Shown here: one piece after another, positions 3,389 to 60,125 of the stretch | Numbering within the stretch: the first letter of the stretch is position 1 | Layout: each line of letters opens with the position of its first letter | Program-made: the position numbers and the translations under genes | Source: a virus | Lineage: Duplodnaviria > Caudoviricetes | Direction: 5' to 3' (one strand) | IMG/VR virus record: IMGVR_UViG_3300037067_027643 | Location: 128,001-192,000 of that record | DNA length: 64,000 nucleotides | Notes under the pieces: generated by a model | The model's database searches: none | Seen by the model: only the letters and a program-made list of their open reading frames with translations | What the model was told of the DNA's origin: nothing

Positions 3389-3620
3389 AATTACATTAAT
3401 ATTTTTATTACATAATATAAATAGTAAAAAAATAAATTAAATAAAATTTTATTTTTAAATATAAATAATTAAAAATATTTTAAAAATTCTATCATTGATT
3501 ATCAGCTACATACAATATTTTTAATAAAAAATTAAACAATTCAACAATTTTTTAATTTATTTTTTACTACTTATATAATATATTACATTTAATTAAACAT
3601 TAATTAAAATAAAAATAAAG

Positions 3621-3785
3621 ATGAAAACAAGAACAAAGAACGAAAATATATTCAAAGTCAATTTTAATTTTCCAACTGATTTATATGAATATATTAAAGA
3701 ACAATCTAAAATAGAATATATGAGTATGACTCAATATATTGTTGAATTGGTAAAAGAAGATTTAAAGAAGAAAGCTAAGATATAA
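3621..3785 (+). CDS. Ribbon-helix-helix (Arc/CopG-like) DNA-binding protein, 54 aa
   Basis: Hand-translated MKTRTKNENIFKVNFNFPTDLYEYIKEQSKIEYMSMTQYIVELVKEDLKKKAKI; beta-strand VNFNFP then two helices; stop 9 nt before tnpB. Confidence 0.7.
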   Translation: MKTRTKNENIFKVNFNFPTDLYEYIKEQSKIEYMSMTQYIVELVKEDLKKKAKI

Positions 3786-3794
3786 ATAATTTTA

Positions 3795-5492
3795 ATGTTA
3801 CAAGAATCAACATATTCAATGTCTTTTTATTCTACTGCTGATTTAAACAGTATTAAATATCAACATCTGCATGATAAAGCTGTTAAGATTAGAGATTTTA
3901 AGAATGATCTAAGTCAAAGAATATGTCAAAATCCAATGTCAATACAAGATTTAAGTAAGTTTGATTTTTTGAAATTATTTGATATTCAAATAGAGGGATT
4001 AGTTGGAAAGGAAATACAGCCAGCATTAAAAGAAGTCTATACATGTTATCAAAATAAATTTACTCAATTAAATCAAAAAATAAGTTTTAAAATACAAAGT
4101 AAACCACTAAAAATTGAATATTATAAAAAGAATACAAAGAAACACAAAAAAGGAGATATTAAAAATAATTCTATTTCATTAAAATCAACTCCTTTAACCA
4201 AAGTTATTTCTTTTCTTAGTAAATATTACAATGAAACAACTGTTGATTATTTGATTAAAGAAATTGATAATATTAATACAACTAAATCTTTAGAACAAAT
4301 TGAGTTTTACAAATCTATTCTTTATTATCTTAATAAATTTGGAACGAGACTTTTAAAGTTAGCTAACGATAGAAAAACGAGATTAATCAAAGAATTATTT
4401 TCTAAACCAATATTATTTAAAGAATTAACTTATGATGGAATAAATAATTTAGAATATATTGTTTCAAAAAATAAAAATAATCATTCTATAATAGAACATT
4501 TTATTTGTTTAAGTGGTTTTGGGAATTATATAGATGGGAAATATAAAAAAATTACTCGAGATGGTAAATTATATATCCCAATTAAATATAGTAAAAAATA
4601 TCATGGTGAGTTAAATGATTATAATCTAAAATATCAAACATCCTATACTATTCAATTTGTTAAAAATAAAATTAGAATTATACTTACAAAGAAAGGAAAT
4701 AGAGAAACTATTACAGATTGTGATAGTGCAGTTGGAGTAGATACTAACTTAAAACATAATTTATTTTCATTAAGTAACGGTAAGACAATCGACTACAATA
4801 GAGAATTGATTAAAAATTATGTCAAGTTTCAACTTAAAATAGATAAGAAACATGATTTTTTGTATAAATCAAATGATAAAGATTTAACCGAAAAACAGAT
4901 TAAACAAAAATACAATTTAATATCTAGAAAACAAACTTGGAATAGACGATTGATTGCTGAGCAAAATTTAAATGTTAGCGACTTAATCAAAGAGACTAAA
5001 TCGGATAACAAAGATCATATCATTTGTGAAGGACTTCTATTAAAAGATAAAACATGGTGTAGGAGTGAAGAATTCTTTGGAATTAAATACAGTAGATTAG
5101 TAAAGATGTTACATCTTTCCAACGTAAAGAATATTCTTGTTAATCAATGTAGAAATAAAAATATTCAACTTACAATAGTTCCATCTTACTATACTTCACA
5201 ACGTTGTTCTGTTTGTGGTTATGTAGACAGGGATAATAGAAAAACTCAGGAAGATTTTGTTTGTCAAAACTGTGGTCATTCAGAGAATGCCGATCTAAAT
5301 GCTAGCAAAAATATAAAACAATTCAAAGAGATAGATGTTCTGTCTCAGTCATTTTTAAAACTTGATAATAGTACTAGTTGGTTAGTTCCAAAGAAACTTG
5401 GAAAACAAACTATTAAAAAAGTTTTGGATGATTATTTTGAAAATAATAACAAATATAGTAATGATACTGATATTAATTATCAGTTAGAGTAG
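3795..5492 (+). CDS. tnpB: Large TnpB-family (IS200/IS605/Cas12f-like) RNA-guided nuclease, 565 aa
   Basis: RuvC-I AVGVDTNLKH, RuvC-II IICEGL, YTSQRCSVCG...FVCQNCG Zn ribbon, RuvC-III NADLNASKNI; all three acidic residues present; no tnpA nearby. Confidence 0.9.
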   Translation: MLQESTYSMSFYSTADLNSIKYQHLHDKAVKIRDFKNDLSQRICQNPMSIQDLSKFDFLKLFDIQIEGLVGKEIQPALKEVYTCYQNKFTQLNQKISFKIQSKPLKIEYYKKNTKKHKKGDIKNNSISLKSTPLTKVISFLSKYYNETTVDYLIKEIDNINTTKSLEQIEFYKSILYYLNKFGTRLLKLANDRKTRLIKELFSKPILFKELTYDGINNLEYIVSKNKNNHSIIEHFICLSGFGNYIDGKYKKITRDGKLYIPIKYSKKYHGELNDYNLKYQTSYTIQFVKNKIRIILTKKGNRETITDCDSAVGVDTNLKHNLFSLSNGKTIDYNRELIKNYVKFQLKIDKKHDFLYKSNDKDLTEKQIKQKYNLISRKQTWNRRLIAEQNLNVSDLIKETKSDNKDHIICEGLLLKDKTWCRSEEFFGIKYSRLVKMLHLSNVKNILVNQCRNKNIQLTIVPSYYTSQRCSVCGYVDRDNRKTQEDFVCQNCGHSENADLNASKNIKQFKEIDVLSQSFLKLDNSTSWLVPKKLGKQTIKKVLDDYFENNNKYSNDTDINYQLE

Positions 5493-5570: not shown

Positions 5571-5764
5571 AATATTAATCCTTTATTGATTATATTAGTA
5601 TAAATAGTTTGAAATTTCAAAATAATTTTGTATATTAAAATAAAATATTATATGTAAATACAAAAATATAAATAGTTTAAAAAATTTTAAAAATATTTTT
5701 CGTTTTACAATTTTTTAATTTATTTTTTACTATTTATATAAAAATAATCGTTACTAAAAAATAT

Positions 5765-5873
5765 AAATGAGTGGGAAACTAGATTTTGCAAACCTAGTTA
5801 TTTTAATGTAACCCTTTAAATCCCACTCGTTTTTTAAATAATATAAAGGGTTAAATAAAAAATAAGGGTTACA
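5765..5873 (+). ncRNA. Structured leader RNA (multi-stem, pseudoknot/switch) upstream of the PolA-like gene
   Basis: 5765-5776 pairs 5821-5832; 5777-5782 pairs 5794-5799; 5807-5818 can pair with 5844-5853 or 5864-5873. Confidence 0.6.
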
Positions 5874-5874
5874 A

Positions 5875-7638
5875 ATGAGTTCCATCCCAAAGTACAAAAT
5901 TTTTACACTCAACAATCTTGTTTTAGAAGATATGATAGGTTATAAACCTAAATATCATGCTTGTTATCAATATATGATACATACTCTAATTCAAAAAAAT
6001 ATTAATTTTAGGAATCAATCTACATTAAACTGGGTTCCTCTTAATATGAAAGTATTAAAATCAATATTTGAAGTTGATAAATCAACAGTAAATAATATAA
6101 TAAAAACTCTTACAAATAATAATATTCTACATAGAGTTGGAACACCTATTCCGGGAGTTCATAGTTATTCTTATGTATTCAACCAAGAACAAAATCACAA
6201 TTACTCTTTTAATGGAAATATAGATAATATTTATTTTATCAAAAGAATAAAACAGTTTGAAAAAACAAGACAAAAACAACGAGTAAAACCAATTAAAAAT
6301 TATAATCAAATATTCAACGCTACAAAAAAAGTTGTATGTGATTTTAAAAAAATGGACACTTTTGTCAACATGATAAGAAATGAAAATGTCAAAGCACAAT
6401 TTCAATACGCAGTTGACAAACTTAAAAAAAGAGATTATTATTTAGTCAAAGATAAAAATGGAAGAATTCATACCAATTTTACAAATTTAAGCAAAGATCT
6501 TCTATATTATACCGACACAGGTTACTTCGATGACTGTGCAAATTCACAACCTCTTTTGCTAAGTCAATTCGTAATATCCTATATTCAAAAGTATGAATCA
6601 ACATCGTCAAATGAAGTAGTCGTCAATGAATCTAATGATACATATATATATAATAGTGATTTTTCCGAAAAAAATGATGAAAATCAAAATCCAGATTTTG
6701 AAAATAATATATATAATAATATAGTATCTTATGGGTTGAATCCTAGTGGTAACTATAAGACTGATAACGGATTACAAATCTGGAATATCACACAGAATTT
6801 ACCACAAGATGTGTTAGATTTTCAAGAAAATTGTAAGACTGGAAAATTTTGGGACGACATTTTATATCATTTTAAAAGTGAAAGTAGAGAAACAGTAAAA
6901 ACAAAAACATTTGCTTCAGTTTTATATGGAGAAGCATATTATGAAAGTAAGTATAAAGACTATTTTAAATTGAAATATCCAAATGTATTAAGAATAGTTG
7001 AAGAAGATAAACAACGAAACGGATATAAGCATATAAGTAATGTTATGCAAAAAATGGAGAGTAAATTGTGGATTGAAACAATTTGTAAAAAATTGCATAA
7101 TAGAGGAATATTTAATTTCTATCCTGTACACGATAGTATTAATTTCTTTGGAGAAATGACAGAAGAAAAAAAACAAATAGCAGAAAAAATAATCAAGATG
7201 AGTTATAAAAAAATGTTTGGAATAGAATGTACACTACATTCAGGAGAATTTAAAAATCATTTAAATTCAGATTATACTTATTCATTTACAAATGCGTTAG
7301 GAATTAATTTTACGTATGAAAAAGATGATGAGTATGTTACTTTAACAGATCAAAATACCGTTACATATCTAACAGGTAGTAAAAAGAAAAAAGAATCTAA
7401 ATTAGATAGGATTCGGGTTAAGAAAACAGTCTTAGGTAGCGTATTAAAAAATTTAGTAGAAAATTGTAATAATGTAAATGCAATAGATGCTATTGGCTAT
7501 CATACATTTGGAGAGCTAATTAACTGTCAAATAAATGATTTTGAAGAAGAATATATGAAATATTTTTGTACTCAGTTACATAATAACGCAATAAATATAA
7601 ATTCAAATTCAAAGAAATTTCAACCTCTCAAAAAATAA
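5875..7638 (+). CDS. Divergent superfamily-A polymerase (TV-Pol-like) with N-terminal winged-helix-like region
   Basis: GRIHTNFTNL; motif A DCANSQP; motif B RETVKTKTFASVLYG; MQKMES; motif C VHDSI; no exonuclease domains seen. Confidence 0.7.
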   Translation: MSSIPKYKIFTLNNLVLEDMIGYKPKYHACYQYMIHTLIQKNINFRNQSTLNWVPLNMKVLKSIFEVDKSTVNNIIKTLTNNNILHRVGTPIPGVHSYSYVFNQEQNHNYSFNGNIDNIYFIKRIKQFEKTRQKQRVKPIKNYNQIFNATKKVVCDFKKMDTFVNMIRNENVKAQFQYAVDKLKKRDYYLVKDKNGRIHTNFTNLSKDLLYYTDTGYFDDCANSQPLLLSQFVISYIQKYESTSSNEVVVNESNDTYIYNSDFSEKNDENQNPDFENNIYNNIVSYGLNPSGNYKTDNGLQIWNITQNLPQDVLDFQENCKTGKFWDDILYHFKSESRETVKTKTFASVLYGEAYYESKYKDYFKLKYPNVLRIVEEDKQRNGYKHISNVMQKMESKLWIETICKKLHNRGIFNFYPVHDSINFFGEMTEEKKQIAEKIIKMSYKKMFGIECTLHSGEFKNHLNSDYTYSFTNALGINFTYEKDDEYVTLTDQNTVTYLTGSKKKKESKLDRIRVKKTVLGSVLKNLVENCNNVNAIDAIGYHTFGELINCQINDFEEEYMKYFCTQLHNNAININSNSKKFQPLKK

Positions 7639-7689
7639 TTTAAAATTTTTTAACTATTTATTTTAAATTATTCATTTAATTTTAAAATT

Positions 7690-8433
7690 ATGGGAAAAAG
7701 AAGAATGAAATCAATTTTTGATGAAGACGAAGAATTATTAATTAACACAGTGAAATTGAAGAAGTTAACAGACAGTGAATTAAAAGTCAAACATATTAAA
7801 ATTAAACACAAAAACGAACATCAAAAACAATTTACAAAGCTAATAGAAGACAATCAGATTACAATCTGTAAGGGTCCGGCAGGCACAGGTAAGAGCTTCC
7901 TTAGCATTGCTAAGGCATTTGAAATAATACAAGATGAAAGTCAACCACAACGTAAGATATTTTTAATTACTCCTGCTGTAGAAGCCGAAGAAAAAATAGG
8001 GTTTTTACCCGGAGATATGCTGGAAAAGCTTTATCCATACTTGTATTCGACATATTATATTATTGATATACTTATTGGAACAGAAACAAGAAAGAAATTA
8101 ATAGACAATGGTACAATAGAACCAATAGCTATAGGATTTCTTAGAGGTGTAAATATTGACAATGCTGTATTAATATGTGAAGAAGCTCAAAATACTTCTG
8201 TAACTACTATGTTAACTTTACTTACTAGAATTGGATTTAATAGTAAATTTATTATTTCTGGTGATATTGAACAAATTGATAATAAAGCAATAAGAACTGT
8301 TAAAGAAAGTGGTTTGGATTATGCTTATAACAATTTAGGTAGTATAGATGGAATTGGAAGATTTGAATTTATTAATGAAGATATTATAAGAAATAAATTA
8401 ATTTCAAAAATTTTAGAAAGATTTAAAAAATAA
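7690..8433 (+). CDS. phoH: PhoH-like ATPase
   Basis: GPAGTGKS, IGFLPGD, FLRG, EEAQN, LTRIG, SGDIEQID. Confidence 0.95.
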   Translation: MGKRRMKSIFDEDEELLINTVKLKKLTDSELKVKHIKIKHKNEHQKQFTKLIEDNQITICKGPAGTGKSFLSIAKAFEIIQDESQPQRKIFLITPAVEAEEKIGFLPGDMLEKLYPYLYSTYYIIDILIGTETRKKLIDNGTIEPIAIGFLRGVNIDNAVLICEEAQNTSVTTMLTLLTRIGFNSKFIISGDIEQIDNKAIRTVKESGLDYAYNNLGSIDGIGRFEFINEDIIRNKLISKILERFKK

Positions 8434-26332: not shown

Positions 26333-26370
26333 ATCCATTGGAATTAATTTTTCGGTGGATTTTTTGTTTT
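26333..26370 (+). terminator. Intrinsic terminator
   Basis: ATCCATTGGA...TTCGGTGGAT followed by a T-tract. Confidence 0.7.
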
Positions 26371-26436
26371 TAAATCTTTTTACTATTTATATAAATATAA
26401 TGTATTAAACTTTTTTATAATAGATAGTAAAATAAC

Positions 26437-30637: not shown

Positions 30638-33481
30638 ATGAGTCAAGAAAGAATTGTCAGTCCTGGTGTATTTACGAGAGAAAATGATATCACGTATTTA
30701 CCTCAAGGAGTTGGAGAAATTGGAGCAGCTATTATAGGACCAACAGAAAAAGGTCGAGCATTTGTTCCAGAAAAAATATATAGTAACACAGAGTTCACAC
30801 AAAAATATGGTGGTAAGACTGACGAGTCTTATACCGCTTTTGCTGTAGAATCTTATTTACAAGATGCAGGTAATATTACAGTAACCAGAATACTTGGATT
30901 AGATGGATATACCGAAAACACAATACCATTAATTATCAATACCACAACCGGAAGTTTCTTAGCTGGAGTATTACATCCAAGTAGAACAGTTGATAGTGAT
31001 ACTGCGTTTAAATCTACATTCTTAGCAAGTGCAAGTTTTTCTAGTTCATACAACGGATATGATTATGCTGGTAGTGCTATGACAACTTTAAATGTTAATA
31101 TCAATAAAGGTGGTACATTATTAGTAAGTGGGTTAGCAGGAACATTAGCAGGAACATTCTATAGTGCAAATTCAGATGGAATGATTATCAGTGCTAGTGG
31201 AGCTAATATCGTAGTAAGTGGTTCTCTTAGTGGATCTGTAATAGGATCTGTAATAGGATTAGAAAACGGAACAGCAATAACAGAATCAAGTTATACATTT
31301 ACTGGTAGTTTATTTAGTGGTAGTATAGGTGGAGCAGCTAACTTAGAAGTAGTTGACGGATTATTTGGTGTATCTACTGTAACTACATCAACAGTAGCAA
31401 GTGGTTTATATACAATGACAGCAGGAACTACAAGTGGATCAGTTTCTACAGTAGCAGCTCATTTTACATCATCGGTAATACCAGATGCAGTTGGAGCAGC
31501 TTTTGTAAAAGGAAATAATATTATATTTGCTAGTGATTTCTTTTTTACATTAAAAGATGATCAATACCCATTATCATTAGATCCAACTAGTGTAAATTAT
31601 ATTGGTAAAGTTTATGGTTATAGCCCTAAAACAACATTAAATACTTCATTTGCAGAAGATAAAGATAAAGCTTATAATTATTTATTATTTGAAAATAAAT
31701 TAACATCATTAGTAGGATTAGATACCAATGCAACTGTATCTACTGCATCGGTTAATATTAATTTATTAGGTGACCAATACATGCCAGCAGAAACTCCTTG
31801 GATTACTTCACAAATATTAGGTGGTAAAGCGCATAATTTATTTAAAGTAGTTACATTAGGTGATGGTAATTATTCTAATAGTGAAATTAAAATTGGTATT
31901 CTTAATGTTAAAAAATCCGGTGAAGTAGGTGGAACAAATTATGGTTCATTTAGTTTAGTTGTAAGAACAGTAAGTGACACAGATAAACAACAAAATGTTA
32001 TAGAAACTTATAGTGATTTAAATTTAGATCCAACCAGTCCTAATTATATCTGTAGAGTAATAGGTGATAAATATCCTACTTTTACAGTTGATACTGAAGG
32101 AATGAGTAGAATTATAATGACAGGAGATTATGATAATAAATCTAAATATATTAGAATAGTAATAGATGATAATGTAAAATATCAAGCTTACGATGCTTCA
32201 TTAGTTCCTTGGGGATTTAAAGCTTATTATACTCCATTTAATGCAACTGCGTTAGGTAGCAATACCGTTCCTCCAGTAACTTATACAACAGATCAAACTT
32301 ATAATTCTGAATACAATAGTAGAGTATACTATGGATTTAATTTTGATTTTGTAAACACTGATAACGATTATTATTTAAATCCAATTCCAAGTGGTTCTAC
32401 TGTAGGTGCTAATATTGATTTCAACTTAGATAATATGACTGGTAATGTCGATAGTGGTTTTACTGGTTCATTATCAAGTGCTAGTTCGTTATTAACTCAA
32501 AGAAAATTTGCTGTAGCATTCCAAGGTGGATTTGATGGTATTAGTCCTTCTAAACCAAAAGCAACTGCTGGAGATATTACTGCGACTAATACAATGGGAT
32601 ATGATTGTTCTACTGCTACAAGTGCTGGAACAAAAGCTTATAGTTATGCTTTAGGATTATTAAGTAATCAAGATGAATATGATGTTAATATGTTACTAAC
32701 ACCTGGTATTATAAAACAATTACATCCATCAGTTGTAAGTAAAGGTATCGACATGGTAGAAACAAGAAGTGATGTATTTTATATATTTGACTTAGTAAAA
32801 TTAACAGAAACTAATCTTGGAACAATTGTAAATGAAGTATTAGGTTTGGATTCAAGTTATGCAGCAACTTACCATTGTTGGTTAAAAGTATTAAATAGTG
32901 ATAGTAATCAACAATTTTGGGTACCACCATCAGTATTGTTAGCAGGTGTAATTGCTTATAATGATAAAGTAGCTTACGAATGGTATGCTCCGGCTGGATT
33001 AAATAGAGGAGGTATTACTGCTGCTGTTGATATTTATACTAAACTTTATCAAAGTGATAGAGATACATTGTATGACAACAGAATTAATCCAATCGCTTCA
33101 TTTCCTAATACTGGTATAGCTGTTTGGGGACAAAAAACATTACAAGTAAAAGCAAGTGCTTTAGATAGAATAAATGTAAGACGTTTATTAATAAAAGCTA
33201 AAAAATATATTGCTTCTATATCTAAGTATATTGTATTTGAACCATCTGTTAATGCTACATGGAAACAATTTTCTAATAATGTTAATCCATACTTGGAAGG
33301 AATACAATCAAAATATGGTTTATATACATTCAAAGTACAAATGGATGCAAATAACAATACTGGAGATGTAATTGATAGAAATGAAATACTCGGGCAGCTA
33401 TGGTTACAGCCCACAAAATCCGGCGAAAAAATTATTTTGGAATTTAATGTAACAAATACTTCTGCAATTTTTAACGGTTGA
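30638..33481 (+). CDS. Tail sheath protein (gp18-like)
   Basis: SPGVFTREND, IIGPTEKG, WYAPAGLNRG, WGQKTL, LDRINVRRL; late motif 30579-30588; AGGAG 30624-30628. Confidence 0.95.
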   Translation: MSQERIVSPGVFTRENDITYLPQGVGEIGAAIIGPTEKGRAFVPEKIYSNTEFTQKYGGKTDESYTAFAVESYLQDAGNITVTRILGLDGYTENTIPLIINTTTGSFLAGVLHPSRTVDSDTAFKSTFLASASFSSSYNGYDYAGSAMTTLNVNINKGGTLLVSGLAGTLAGTFYSANSDGMIISASGANIVVSGSLSGSVIGSVIGLENGTAITESSYTFTGSLFSGSIGGAANLEVVDGLFGVSTVTTSTVASGLYTMTAGTTSGSVSTVAAHFTSSVIPDAVGAAFVKGNNIIFASDFFFTLKDDQYPLSLDPTSVNYIGKVYGYSPKTTLNTSFAEDKDKAYNYLLFENKLTSLVGLDTNATVSTASVNINLLGDQYMPAETPWITSQILGGKAHNLFKVVTLGDGNYSNSEIKIGILNVKKSGEVGGTNYGSFSLVVRTVSDTDKQQNVIETYSDLNLDPTSPNYICRVIGDKYPTFTVDTEGMSRIIMTGDYDNKSKYIRIVIDDNVKYQAYDASLVPWGFKAYYTPFNATALGSNTVPPVTYTTDQTYNSEYNSRVYYGFNFDFVNTDNDYYLNPIPSGSTVGANIDFNLDNMTGNVDSGFTGSLSSASSLLTQRKFAVAFQGGFDGISPSKPKATAGDITATNTMGYDCSTATSAGTKAYSYALGLLSNQDEYDVNMLLTPGIIKQLHPSVVSKGIDMVETRSDVFYIFDLVKLTETNLGTIVNEVLGLDSSYAATYHCWLKVLNSDSNQQFWVPPSVLLAGVIAYNDKVAYEWYAPAGLNRGGITAAVDIYTKLYQSDRDTLYDNRINPIASFPNTGIAVWGQKTLQVKASALDRINVRRLLIKAKKYIASISKYIVFEPSVNATWKQFSNNVNPYLEGIQSKYGLYTFKVQMDANNNTGDVIDRNEILGQLWLQPTKSGEKIILEFNVTNTSAIFNG

Positions 33482-33509: not shown

Positions 33510-33541
33510 AAAAGGATATAATTAAGTTTATATCCTTTTTT
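33510..33541 (+). terminator. Intrinsic terminator
   Basis: AAAAGGATATAA-loop-TTATATCCTTTT plus T-tract after the sheath gene. Confidence 0.8.
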
Positions 33542-33583
33542 ATTTTTACTATTTATATATAATAAACAAATAACAATTATATC

Positions 33584-59984: not shown

Positions 59985-60020
59985 AAATCCTGTCAATTAA
60001 TTTTGATGGGATTTTTTATT
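59985..60020 (+). terminator. Intrinsic terminator
   Basis: AAATCCTGTCAA...TTGATGGGATTT plus T-tract. Confidence 0.7.
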
Positions 60021-60125
60021 TGGATTATTTCAATAAAACAATAAATTTTAATTAATTTTTTACTATTTATATAATGAAATAAAAATCCTATAAATCTTAT
60101 GTCCTGTAATTAAATCCATACAATA

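Follow-up and report, generated by a model that had tools for sequence, protein, structure and literature searches.

Minimal polymerases of the TV-Pol type occur widely in phages and in mobile elements, and CcPol-MP of SCCmec is the sole member of the group that has been characterised biochemically (PMC7581432). CcPol-MP is a primase, and CcPol accepts RNA primers and RNA templates in vitro (PMC7581432). The defining features of the family, as laid down by Iyer, Abhiman and Aravind (2008), are a beta-hairpin arginine, two palm aspartates, a fingers Asp with RxxxK, the absence of an exonuclease and a length of 400-600 residues (PMC2579912), and the Microcystis phage Ma-LMM01 was reported to carry an integrated TV-Pol element (PMC2579912). 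Sputnik V13 is a further named member. A preliminary description of a 64,000-nt stretch of phage DNA (hereafter the window) had proposed a polymerase of this kind behind a pseudoknotted leader RNA, which would serve either as a translational switch or as a dedicated template, primer or origin for the enzyme. The locus raises two questions, namely what kind of polymerase is encoded and what its leader does.

The carrier is a 285.7-kb AT-rich T4-like jumbo phage, in which the polymerase gene is the open reading frame 5875-7638 on the plus strand (587 aa), with a TnpB gene upstream and a PhoH gene downstream. The phage genome encodes a primase of its own (phrog_47 match; DnaG type), and an open reading frame with PolB-like exonuclease motifs at its start, read by eye from the sequence, adjoins a second TnpB copy. 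The phage appears to have its own PolB-type replicase and DnaG-type primase, and the product of 5875-7638 is probably an accessory polymerase.

The polymerase protein and its family

The protein carries motif A (D220-CANSQP), motif B (R338-ETVK342-TKTF-ASVLYG) and motif C (V418-H-D420-S), all on invariant or nearly invariant columns of a 30-sequence homologue alignment. In this alignment R197, D220, K342, E395 and H419-D420 are invariant and D312 and R338 nearly so; R197, D220 (NSQP), R338/K342, E395 and H419-D420 are also the residues common to 593 distant homologues, most of which are 370-600 aa long. To judge by these residues, the enzyme is probably catalytically intact. No exonuclease domain was found, and residues 1-117 fold as a winged helix instead, so that the 587-aa exonuclease-less protein with motifs A, B and C was recovered as first described.

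The core is made up of thumb-like helices, a beta-hairpin with R197, a palm with D220 and D420, and fingers with D312 and R338xxxK342. Palm and fingers superpose on Pol theta with Z 15.9 and an rmsd of 2.9 A over 241 aa, and apPOL, KlenTaq, T7 DNA polymerase and Pol I gave Z 14-15.5 (VIA-align). The 50 best structural matches are all DNA polymerases, and the matches listed by Foldseek (E values to 3e-5) are all family-A DNA polymerases; the palm-domain PolA fold that had been named as a check on the proposal is thus present. In the model, R197 (GRIH) sits between strands 190-192 and 198-200, and R338 and K342 both lie on helix 338-351. Together, the structural model and the motifs support a stand-alone family-A (PolA/T7-RNAP superfamily) palm and fingers enzyme that has no exonuclease.

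Fold and motifs alone are shared with the classical family-A enzymes, as the DNA_pol_A HMM (PF00476) gave no match. Pfam searches were negative both for the 587-aa protein (E up to 1) and for 30 homologues (E up to 0.01), and searches of PHROG, NCBIfam and PDB sequences with the 587-aa protein returned nothing significant. In comparison with RNA polymerases, the profile gave nothing better than a motif C match to mitochondrial RNA polymerase with E about 3; motif B (F at K+4, Y-G at K+8) is DNA-polymerase-like, and sugar selectivity is a property not readable from sequence.

The structural matches of the N-terminal domain, which the preliminary description did not mention, are all winged-helix domains. 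The best are the RepA_N plasmid initiators 4pql/4pt7/5kbj (Z 6.8-7.6) and the winged helix of ORC2 (Z 7.2), these Z values being middling; a MarR match at aa 54-87 is weak. The C-terminal extension (aa 465-587) is conserved in an 82%-identical orthologue; its model is poor (pLDDT below 60), and no informative structural match or relatives were found for it.

All published defining features of TV-Pol can be located in the protein. R197, invariant in 30 sequences, provides the conserved beta-hairpin arginine ahead of the palm, the invariant D220 and D420 the two metal-binding aspartates in the RRM-like palm, and D312, R338 and K342 the Asp and RxxxK of the fingers that follow the first palm strand; the length of 587 aa lies within 400-600 residues, and an exonuclease is absent. 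As to the setting expected for the family (mobile elements or viruses, with a D5 helicase, transposase, integrase or resolvase), homologues are located in small integrative elements adjoining a Resolvase or Phage_integrase (tyrosine integrase) gene, and the present gene lies in a phage. The family profile (A1) gave no match in Ma-LMM01 (AB231700) in a search with a loose first filter and no positive control. The proposed kinship with TV-Pol therefore stands as far as the defining features go, which the protein appears to share in full, and lacks a sequence-level tie to a named member.

The present enzyme resembles TV-Pol and CcPol-MP in its minimal 400-600-aa family-A core with the same catalytic residues, in the lack of an exonuclease, in the possession of an extra N-terminal domain, and in the placement of homologues in small elements beside a resolvase or integrase; TV-Pol genes also occur in phage genomes. 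It differs in that no adjacent D5-type helicase and no small gene for an OB-fold (MP/SSB-like) partner, as in CcPol-MP, are visible beside it, that its N-terminal domain is a winged helix and its 120-aa C-terminal extension is unique, and that it resides in a T4-like jumbo phage with its own primase and PolB. A second comparison is offered by divPolA2, a diverged additional PolA found in barbaviruses and in some other phages, for which a role as repair DNA polymerase or as RNA polymerase was suggested (Yutin et al. 2024, PMC11348598). It, too, is a second PolA-like enzyme that lacks an exonuclease, has an unrelated globular domain at its N-terminus and comes from phages that already have PolB (PMC11348598); in contrast to the present case, its description includes no leader RNA, and the family profile found no match in its representative genome MG592441 (no positive control).

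Structure and alleles of the leader

The elements of the leader and the domains of the protein are listed in Table 1.

Table 1. Leader elements and polymerase domains, in coordinates of the window
Feature	Position	Strand	Remark
Late-type phage promoter motif	5708..5741 (core TTTACTATTTATATAA at 5726-5741)	+	recurrence in genome
P1 5' arm (AAAUGAGUGGGA)	5765..5776	+	pairs with 5821-5832
P2 inner hairpin, stem AACUAG/CUAGUU, 11-nt loop, stacked on P1	5777..5799	+	AACTAG 5777-5782 pairs with CTAGTT 5794-5799
Anti-Shine-Dalgarno (anti-SD) segment (GUAACCCUUUA)	5808..5818	+	inside 21-nt 3' bulge of P1-P2 hairpin
P1 3' arm (UCCCACUCG) and U6 tract	5821..5835	+	terminator-like
Box 1, SD-like decoy (UAAAGGGUUA)	5844..5853	+	complement of anti-SD; no start codon after it
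Box 2, Shine-Dalgarno region of polymerase gene (UAAGGGUUAC)	5863..5872	+	GGG 6 nt before AUG
N-terminal winged-helix domain (aa 1-117)	5875..6225	+	domain model pLDDT 85.5
Family-A polymerase core (aa 139-464)	6289..7266	+	structure superposition, invariant columns
Lineage-specific C-terminal extension (aa 465-587)	7267..7638	+	missing from nearly all aligned homologues

The promoter core occurs in at least 12 exact copies in the genome, including those of the tail-sheath gene (30576) and the head-tail adaptor gene (26379); the copies usually lie 18-70 nt before an ATG, and the present one lies 133 nt before it. The 12-bp outer stem and inner hairpin of the preliminary description are both present at 5765-5832. 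The outer stem, P1, joins A5765-A5776 with T5821-T5832 and consists of eight Watson-Crick pairs (GAGTGGGA/TCCCACTC), one U5768-G5829 pair and three A-U pairs reaching into the T-run 5830-5835. With five G-C pairs in P1 and the U6 tract at 5830-5835, the G+C-containing stem and following U-tract of an intrinsic terminator are both found, and P1-P2/U6 looks like a terminator. Elsewhere in the phage, hairpins with T5-6 runs are found at gene ends, just before late promoters. A 43-nt interior with a second hairpin is atypical for an intrinsic terminator. Neither the U6 tract nor the phage promoter before the outer stem figured in the earlier account.

Two alternative pairings are available to the anti-SD segment. 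Its part TAACCCTTTA (5809-5818) perfectly complements TAAAGGGTTA of box 1 (5844-5853) in a 10-bp duplex of -12.7 kcal/mol, and GTAACCCTT (5808-5816) perfectly complements AAGGGTTAC of box 2 (5864-5872) in a 9-bp duplex of -14.5 kcal/mol. The claim that one loop segment can pair with two downstream copies thus holds for both copies; as for the distance given to the start codon, AAGGGTTA (5864-5871) ends 3 nt before the ATG at 5875, and only the extended AAGGGTTACA ends 1 nt before it.

The hairpin 5765-5836 has a dG of -18.8 kcal/mol (z -3.9), and 0 of 200 shuffles folded equally well. The 285.7 kb contain 8 instances of AAGGGTTA or its complement, 3 of which fall within 60 nt at the leader; for GAGTGGGA/TCCCACTC, chance predicts about one occurrence per genome, and the leader holds both arms. 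Of 5000 dinucleotide shuffles, 1 produced a segment that had two complementary partners, each GC-containing and at least 8 nt long, and the GC content of the leader is 26% compared with 9-10% in the upstream spacer, which bears out the remark that such GC-rich complementarity stands out in AT-rich spacer DNA. Folded as one, the entire 126-133-nt leader is unexceptional (z -1.2 to -1.5), so that the signal resides in the individual helices; in the nested minimum-free-energy fold of the full leader, the anti-SD:box 1 helix replaces P1.

Rfam 15, including c4 (RF01695), riboswitches and the IS605-orfB motifs, gave no gathering-level match in the window, and at E up to 10 it returned mir-1245 (26 bits, cut-off 79), RAGATH-9 (19 bits, cut-off 75) and nothing else, so that the Rfam search suggested earlier yielded no related family for the leader. 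A covariance model of two alleles, run against the same genome for a second copy, found the leader itself (141 bits) and next a match with E 1.7. An open frame in the leader was considered as a conserved peptide and rejected. Although it runs uninterrupted in the two alleles (14 and 16 codons), the majority of its altered codons specify a different residue, and DNA of 25% GC would contain a frame this long by chance in roughly one case out of four.

The 82%-identical polymerase orthologue (L020, L021 and L022) has the same leader architecture and lies on a related phage contig that is devoid of the TnpB cassette. In L020 the promoter motif is identical at 32 of 34 positions, the segment 5819-5843 (P1 3' arm, U6 and following spacer) at 25 of 25, and all 12 pairs of P1 are invariant in both alleles, including U5768-G5829. 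P2 reads AGUUGAG/CUCAAUU in L020, with three pairs changed on both sides, one A-U changed to G-U, and a wholly different loop sequence. The anti-SD segment reads AUAGUCCUUUA, and both boxes carry matching changes: two anti-SD pairs are changed on both sides in box 1 (UAAAGGACUA), and two in the aligned columns of box 2 (AAAGGACUAU). By eye, a third, terminal pair of box 2 is changed from G-C to A-U. In either box pairing, 98-99% of cells are paired, compared with 26-54% when the partners are slid by 1-3 columns, and RNAalifold recovers P1 and P2 unaided. In a third, partial allele (L002), which arrived by recombination of the leader and first 60 codons alone, box 1 is AAAGGGCAU and box 2 is UAAGGGCUA, the same position being changed from T to C in both.

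Identity by segment is 58% in P2, 67% in the anti-SD, 70% in box 1 and 50% in box 2, and 100% in the scaffold between; third codon positions of the orthologues are 78-83% identical. Since the alleles comprise two complete ones and one partial one, the covariation all comes from one divergence. Exact and gapped DNA patterns and protein-derived patterns found no further alleles in viral_contigs, metagenome_contigs and genome_contigs, one metagenome pattern holding a window-specific base run that placed the L020 allele beyond its reach; near-identical records may have been passed over. The U5768-G5829 pair and the G-U pair in P2 of L020 can form on the plus strand only (A-C or C-A on the minus strand), which favours an RNA of the transcribed strand.

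Among distant homologues, the upstream regions of L003, L005, L007 and L019 are 117 nt, 97 nt, overlapping and 10 nt, respectively, and the hairpins upstream of L003 and L005 resemble terminators of the preceding gene. A leader conserved throughout the family was rejected, as these four hold at most the terminator of the upstream gene. A covarying leader had been predicted for homologues, and the prediction holds in the 82% orthologue, where P2 and both box pairings are compensated, and fails in the four distant ones. The compensation of the inner hairpin and of both alternative pairings in this second phage lineage supports the leader as a real structured element.

The proximity of a TnpB-like gene (PF07282, 1.2e-16), which ends at 5492, 276 nt upstream, could suggest that the leader is the omega-RNA or the right end of the TnpB cassette. 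We give this reading practically no weight and rejected it: the related phage keeps the leader in the absence of the cassette, a promoter lies between TnpB and the hairpin, and DNA similarity to a second, 75%-identical copy of TnpB stops about 50 nt beyond the stop codon. TnpB was inserted beside the polymerase gene later and as a separate event. The AT-rich spacer 5575-5707 was also considered, its conservation being a possible sign of an origin, and was rejected, because its 84% identity between alleles is no higher than at synonymous sites.

Proposed role of the leader RNA as a brake on the polymerase, and alternative roles

We somewhat favour a model in which the leader acts on an accessory winged-helix/family-A polymerase by attenuation and sequestration of the ribosome-binding site, working either in cis or through a short RNA that ends at the terminator. 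Most probably the leader is a genuine RNA brake on enzyme production, because matching mutations in the related phage keep the pairings; of the roles put forward in the preliminary description the translational one fits best, since box 2 coincides with the Shine-Dalgarno region. Transcription would start at the late-type promoter 5726-5741 and produce an unusually long 5' leader of about 130 nt. P1 and P2 would form a 19-bp bipartite hairpin followed by U6, at which most transcripts would stop as short RNAs some 85-90 nt long. Where transcription reads through, the anti-SD would pair with box 2 in a pseudoknot with P1 or in a nested alternative fold, and ribosome binding would be blocked. Box 1, transcribed first, would act as a decoy that competes for the anti-SD and sets the fraction of translatable mRNA, and mRNAs that extend past U6 could additionally be targeted in trans by the short terminated RNA. 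Any trigger of a switch between these states, like the start site, the stop at U6 and the effect on translation, is something we infer from the sequence. Several observations count against the model. Three copies of a 9-10-nt word, one inverted, would co-vary as DNA sites of a single protein too; a promoter immediately before a terminator is odd for a gene meant to be expressed; and the single divergence behind all the covariation, the unexceptional fold of the entire leader with P1 replaced, the missing leader in distant homologues and the missing Rfam relative weigh on the same side.

The first of these observations leads to an explanation in terms of DNA. The winged helix of the enzyme would bind the three co-varying words of 9-10 bp (two direct, one inverted) as iteron- or operator-like sites, the hairpin would be a single-strand initiation site, and the leader, rather than being primarily an RNA, would be the cis-acting origin at which a TV-Pol mini-replicon, or the phage itself, begins replication. 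The best winged-helix matches include iteron-binding RepA_N initiators and ORC2, and the differences between the orthologues are concentrated at aa 61-74 (9 of 14 residues, compared with 18% overall), in and just before the predicted helix 69-81, paired with different boxes. The cumulative GC skew over the 285.7-kb genome has its global minimum at window position 3,676, the polymerase gene is the first gene of the rightward arm, and in the relative that lacks the TnpB cassette it directly abuts a divergent gene; a primase role is established among TV-Pol relatives (CcPol-MP, PMC7581432), which are housed in mobile, replicon-like elements of small size. We nevertheless consider this explanation rather unlikely. 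The GC-skew minimum coincides with a switch in gene orientation and may therefore reflect transcription rather than replication. Unlike double-stranded DNA sites, P2 keeps its pairing despite a complete change of sequence and has, together with P1, two wobbles that fit the plus strand only. The invariant U6 that adjoins P1, and a box 2 that overlaps the ribosome-binding site, are what one expects of a functional RNA, L002 has changed both boxes and yet is identical to the window in the recognition-helix region (aa 63 onward), and the phage has a primase and replicase of its own.

It is unlikely, too, that the short RNA is itself the product, the promoter and P1-P2/U6 forming a stand-alone sRNA gene of about 85-90 nt whose loop or bulge would act in trans as a specificity determinant, in the manner of P1/P7 c4 or of plasmid copy-control RNAs, and silence the polymerase mRNA of its own allele, e.g. 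on co-infecting relatives. A conserved promoter is indeed followed within about 90 nt by an invariant terminator-like hairpin, the substitutions cluster exactly in the interacting segments and spare the scaffold between them, and three box alleles exist, one of them acquired by the recombination of leader and first 60 codons. Such clustering is typical of antisense specificity or incompatibility determinants, in which Citron and Schuster reportedly described it in 1990. With two to three alleles, however, it could be neutral compensatory drift in helices; accumulation of the RNA would be an assumption, the leader has no Rfam c4 match, and trans action is not required, because each read-through mRNA already has the anti-SD in cis.

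Protein and leader may also be viewed together. The winged-helix/TV-Pol enzyme and the upstream element would then form an allele-specific initiation module at the strand-switch point and GC-skew minimum of the phage, in which the enzyme recognises the hypervariable words or the hairpin (as DNA, or as nascent or terminated RNA) and starts DNA synthesis, and the same RNA throttles translation. Such a replicon-style unit of rep gene, control RNA and origin in a T4-like jumbo phage seems to us distinctly unlikely.

The remaining role from the preliminary description, a dedicated template or primer, fits the geometry of the predicted terminated RNA, a hairpin with a base-paired 3' end and a 17-nt 5' overhang that TV-Pol would extend or copy, and it fits the use of RNA primers and RNA templates by CcPol in vitro (PMC7581432). 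It is very improbable, as the loop segment covaries with SD-like boxes, an indication of translation and not of templating; moreover, the distant homologues are devoid of the element, and nothing physically ties the protein to the RNA.

Comparable regulatory systems and implications

In phage T4, replication proteins are controlled via structured 5' leaders that overlap the ribosome-binding site, namely the leader pseudoknot of gene 32 and the hairpin operator of gene 43. By analogy, they may serve as a precedent for the proposed autoregulation, with the difference that the T4 sites bind protein and have no terminator or decoy box. In c4 RNAs, the complementary words differ between related phages with matching changes. 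The c4 RNA of phage P1, encoded upstream in the same operon, blocks icd/ant expression (PMC8198154). Like the present leader, c4 of P1/P7 immI (RF01695) is a regulatory RNA upstream of its target, on the same strand and transcript, with short exposed sequences that pair over the ribosome-binding site. It differs in having no sequence or covariance-model similarity to the leader, in being released by processing and not by a terminator, and in its target, which is an antirepressor operon and not a polymerase.

In IS200 tnpA, the 5' region combines a rho-independent terminator with an SD-sequestering stem-loop (Ellis et al. 2015, PMC4513863). A mobile-element gene is thus nearly silenced by an upstream terminator and a 5'-UTR stem that hides a AAGGGGGU-type Shine-Dalgarno sequence (PMC4513863), in likeness to the present arrangement. 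The IS200 terminator, however, precedes the promoter and blocks impinging transcription, whereas the present one comes after a strong phage promoter, and the IS200 Shine-Dalgarno sequence lies in a simple hairpin, whereas here one bulge segment has two alternative SD-like partners.

The locus provides a concrete, testable handle on one of the TV-Pol-type polymerases, and one with a nucleic-acid-binding domain. Its leader is a compact uncatalogued RNA, and compensatory mutations in nature lend support to its helices. In practical terms the yield is modest, as the motif is known from two to three closely related uncultured phages only. If the leader is a translation brake, this would suggest that such polymerases must stay at very low levels even in a large lytic phage; and if it is the hypervariable words that determine specificity, the locus would add a new case to the allele-specific RNA controls, such as P1/P7 c4 or plasmid copy control, here attached to a replication-type enzyme.

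The polymerase and its family

The preliminary description had reported a stand-alone polymerase of the PolA superfamily preceded by a pseudoknotted, switch-like leader RNA. The ORF at 5875-7638 encodes 587 aa, for which no significant match was found in Pfam, PHROGs, NCBIfam or the PDB sequences. An exhaustive HMMER search retrieved 593 relatives at E <= 1e-3 and, near-identical copies excepted, these were at most about 33% identical to the polymerase. In a 30-sequence alignment R197, D220, G323, K342, P369, E395, H419 and D420 were invariant and N223, S224, P226, D312 and R338 nearly so; the conserved columns correspond to motifs A, B and C of the preliminary description and the beta-hairpin arginine.

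An AlphaFold model had a mean pLDDT of 74 (core > 90), and only family-A DNA polymerases were found among the Foldseek matches listed (E down to 3e-5). Residues 140-464 were superposed on Pol theta by VIA-align with Z 15.9 and rmsd 2.9 A over 241 residues, and apPOL, KlenTaq, T7 DNA polymerase and Pol I gave Z 14-15.5. Residues 1-117, modelled separately, formed a winged helix (pLDDT 85.5); each structural match listed was a winged-helix domain, with RepA_N plasmid initiators and ORC2 at the top (Z 6.8-7.6, middling values). The C-terminal 120 residues are lineage-specific and uninterpretable. Structural neighbours in the ESM Atlas came from Bacteroidota and tailed phages, one cluster carrying the automatic name of family-A palm-domain proteins. 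On a 3355-nt JGI contig from one sample the gene was called as two pieces (P0003, aa 1-52; P0153, aa 166-587), and each piece matches the window's protein at 100% identity; the winged-helix region is therefore interrupted on this contig, which could reflect either a genuinely disrupted allele or a misassembly.

All the structural features by which Iyer et al. (PMC2579912) defined TV-Pol were found in the polymerase, and its homologues sit in small elements next to a resolvase or tyrosine integrase, in agreement with the small elements described in that paper. Profile searches of Microcystis phage Ma-LMM01 and of the divPolA2 representative genome MG592441, run with no positive control, gave no sequence tie to named TV-Pol or divPolA2 (Yutin et al., PMC11348598), and the polymerase was therefore filed as TV-Pol-like by features rather than as a proven TV-Pol member.

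Probable promoter and architecture of the leader

A 16-nt motif, TTTACTATTTATATAA, occurs in at least 12 exact copies in the genome, mostly 18-70 nt before an ATG, and those for the tail sheath and the head-tail adaptor are among the genes so preceded. The motif most likely serves as the late-type promoter of the phage. The copy at 5726-5741 lies 133 nt ahead of the polymerase ATG, so that the gene would have an exceptionally long 5' UTR, counted from the predicted transcription start. Genome-wide, the motif recurs between genes in a cassette that opens with a terminator hairpin followed by a T-run and ends in TTTACTATTTATATAA (e.g. window 26360-26394, 33536-33560 and 60012-60074); similar promoter/stem-loop cassettes have been described for T4-type phages. 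Whereas hairpin-plus-T-run terminators precede late promoters elsewhere, the order at the polymerase leader is promoter, terminator-like hairpin and ribosome-binding site.

Features of the polymerase leader in the window
Feature	Position	Strand	Remark
P1	A5765-A5776 with T5821-T5832	+	pairing in UTR
P2	A5777-G5782 with C5794-T5799	+	pairing; stacked on P1
U6 tract	T5830-T5835	+	T-run in leader
Anti-SD GUAACCCUUUA	in 21-nt 3' bulge	+	perfect complement of box 1 and box 2
Box 1 UAAAGGGUUA	5844-5853	+	perfect complement of GUAACCCUUUA
Box 2 AAGGGUUAC	5864-5872	+	perfect complement of GUAACCCUUUA

Box 2 has its GGG 6 nt before the AUG and is therefore the Shine-Dalgarno (SD) region. The hairpin by itself has a dG of -18.8 kcal/mol (z -3.9), a single segment with two complementary partners arose in 1/5000 shuffles, and the leader words are strongly over-represented locally. 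Pairing of the anti-SD amounts to -12.7 kcal/mol with box 1 vs -14.5 kcal/mol with box 2.

Three further features were observed in the window and partly in the related phage contig L020. A uORF of 14 codons (5767-5811; MSGKLDFANLVILM) starts within the P1 5' arm and has its TAA stop within the anti-SD, and that of L020 (16 codons; MSGKLSLITSIILIVL) ends just past the anti-SD; no SD lies ahead of the start, and the peptide is poorly conserved between the two. The leader start (5740-5775; AAAAATAATCGTTAC...AAATGAGT) is similar, a 10-nt insert aside, to the SD-ATG region (5858-5882; AAAAATAAGGGTTACAAATGAGT), and an insertion or a duplication between two gene-start copies may have given rise to the structured piece of 100 nt. 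The P1 5' arm (UGGGAAACU, 5772-5780) can alternatively pair with polymerase codons 2-6 (AGUU...UCCCA, 5878-5891), with comparable pairing of other sequence (GGGAAG/CUUCC) in the minimum-free-energy fold of L020; this may further occlude the start region.

The locus in related phages and its genome setting

L020 was reached via the 90-aa divergent neighbour gene, and two other samples yielded L021 and L022 by the same route. All three carry a polymerase orthologue (82% identical) head-to-head with this neighbour and without the RHH-TnpB cassette. The L020 promoter is 32/34 identical to that of the window, P1 and the U6 tract are kept, and U6 with the following spacer stretch is 25/25 identical. 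P2 is AGUUGAG/CUCAAUU in L020 vs AACUAG/CUAGUU in the window, with 3 pairs altered on both sides and one A-U changed to G-U. The L020 anti-SD (UAGUCCUUUA) pairs perfectly over 10 bp with either box 1 (UAAAGGACUA, -12.8 kcal/mol) or box 2 (AAAGGACUAU, -13.2 kcal/mol). Across the aligned leaders 98-99% of cells were paired with either box, falling to 26-54% when the partners were slid by 1-3 columns; 5 pairs per structure were changed on both sides, and this covariation stems from a single divergence event between two full alleles. P1 and P2 were independently recovered by RNAalifold. Identity between window and L020 amounts to 58% for P2, 67% for the anti-SD, 70% for box 1 and 50% for box 2, whereas the scaffold between these segments is 100% identical and third codon positions reach 78-83%; substitutions are thus concentrated in the pairing segments, and compensated.

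In the partial third allele, L002 (1-2145 vs window 5833-7982), all 25 differences fall within 5841-6058, i.e. the leader and first 61 codons, and 1,924 nt from 6059 on are identical; on this pattern L002 is a recombination mosaic with a sharp boundary inside the winged-helix domain. GGGC replaces GGGU in both of its boxes, and the contig starts downstream of the anti-SD. The regions upstream of distant homologues (L003, L005, L007 and L019) are without the element, so the leader is a regulatory addition confined to one lineage and does not characterise the polymerase family as a whole. The preliminary description was confirmed in its observation of polymerase and leader (conserved motifs, family-A fold, leader helices) and partly supported in its interpretation: the class of the enzyme holds, and so does a genuine leader that covaries and is probably translational. 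Autoregulation and a template or origin role, likewise proposed there, are candidate functions.

Genes for a contractile-tail structural module and for PhoH, a ClpP-like protease, NAD-salvage enzymes and a DnaG-type primase lie in the window (bases 128,001-192,000 of the virus record; 285,744 bp, GC 25%). Together with an ORF elsewhere in the genome that opens like a PolB, they identify the virus as a T4-like jumbo phage that encodes replication machinery of its own. A second TnpB-like gene outside the window (31110-32759 (-) of the whole record) is 75% identical to the copy at window 3795-5492, and the ORF directly downstream of it opens with PolB-type exonuclease motifs, as read from the sequence. 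Similarity between the TnpB copies stops ~50 nt beyond the stop codon, in agreement with a separate insertion; by this and by the cassette-free relatives, TnpB was ruled out as part of the polymerase/leader system and is a later insertion. A 34-nt direct repeat (33/34; window 3545-3578 and 5708-5741) containing the late-type promoter flanks the cassette, and L020 has one copy and no cassette, so the cassette seems to have come together with the promoter region or to have duplicated it. Cumulative GC skew of the whole 285.7-kb genome has its global minimum at window 3676 (131,676 of the record), where ~128 kb of mostly minus-strand genes change to a plus-strand arm; minus the 2.2-kb cassette, it would sit a few hundred nt or less from the leader.

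Possible function of the leader

The leader is likely to function at the RNA level, in cis, in trans or both. That the word in three copies (one inverted) is instead a set of DNA binding sites for one protein, and co-varies for that reason, appears improbable: such sites would suit the winged-helix domain, the way in which differences between the orthologues cluster at aa 61-74 and the location of the gene at the GC-skew minimum, but P2 has wholly changed in sequence with its pairing kept, both wobble pairs fit the + strand only, U6 is invariant directly after P1, box 2 is the ribosome-binding site, and L002 has changed both boxes with the recognition-helix region unchanged. Templating, or no function, shares the remaining probability.

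For an RNA-level function, we propose that the late-type promoter fires at the predicted start and that P1-P2/U6 would terminate most transcripts. In the read-through mRNA the bulge anti-SD would pair with box 2 and block initiation; box 1, made first and nearly as stable a partner, would compete and so set the translatable fraction. The trigger might be the polymerase itself, for which the T4 gp32 and gp43 operators are a precedent, or else ribosomes translating the 14-codon uORF; a third candidate is a trans effect of the terminated RNA, comparable to that of P1 c4. A close parallel to this design is the 5' region of IS200 tnpA, in which a terminator and an SD-sequestering stem are combined (PMC4513863). 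TV-Pol-like enzymes are a known kind, and so are leaders that join a terminator to an anti-SD.
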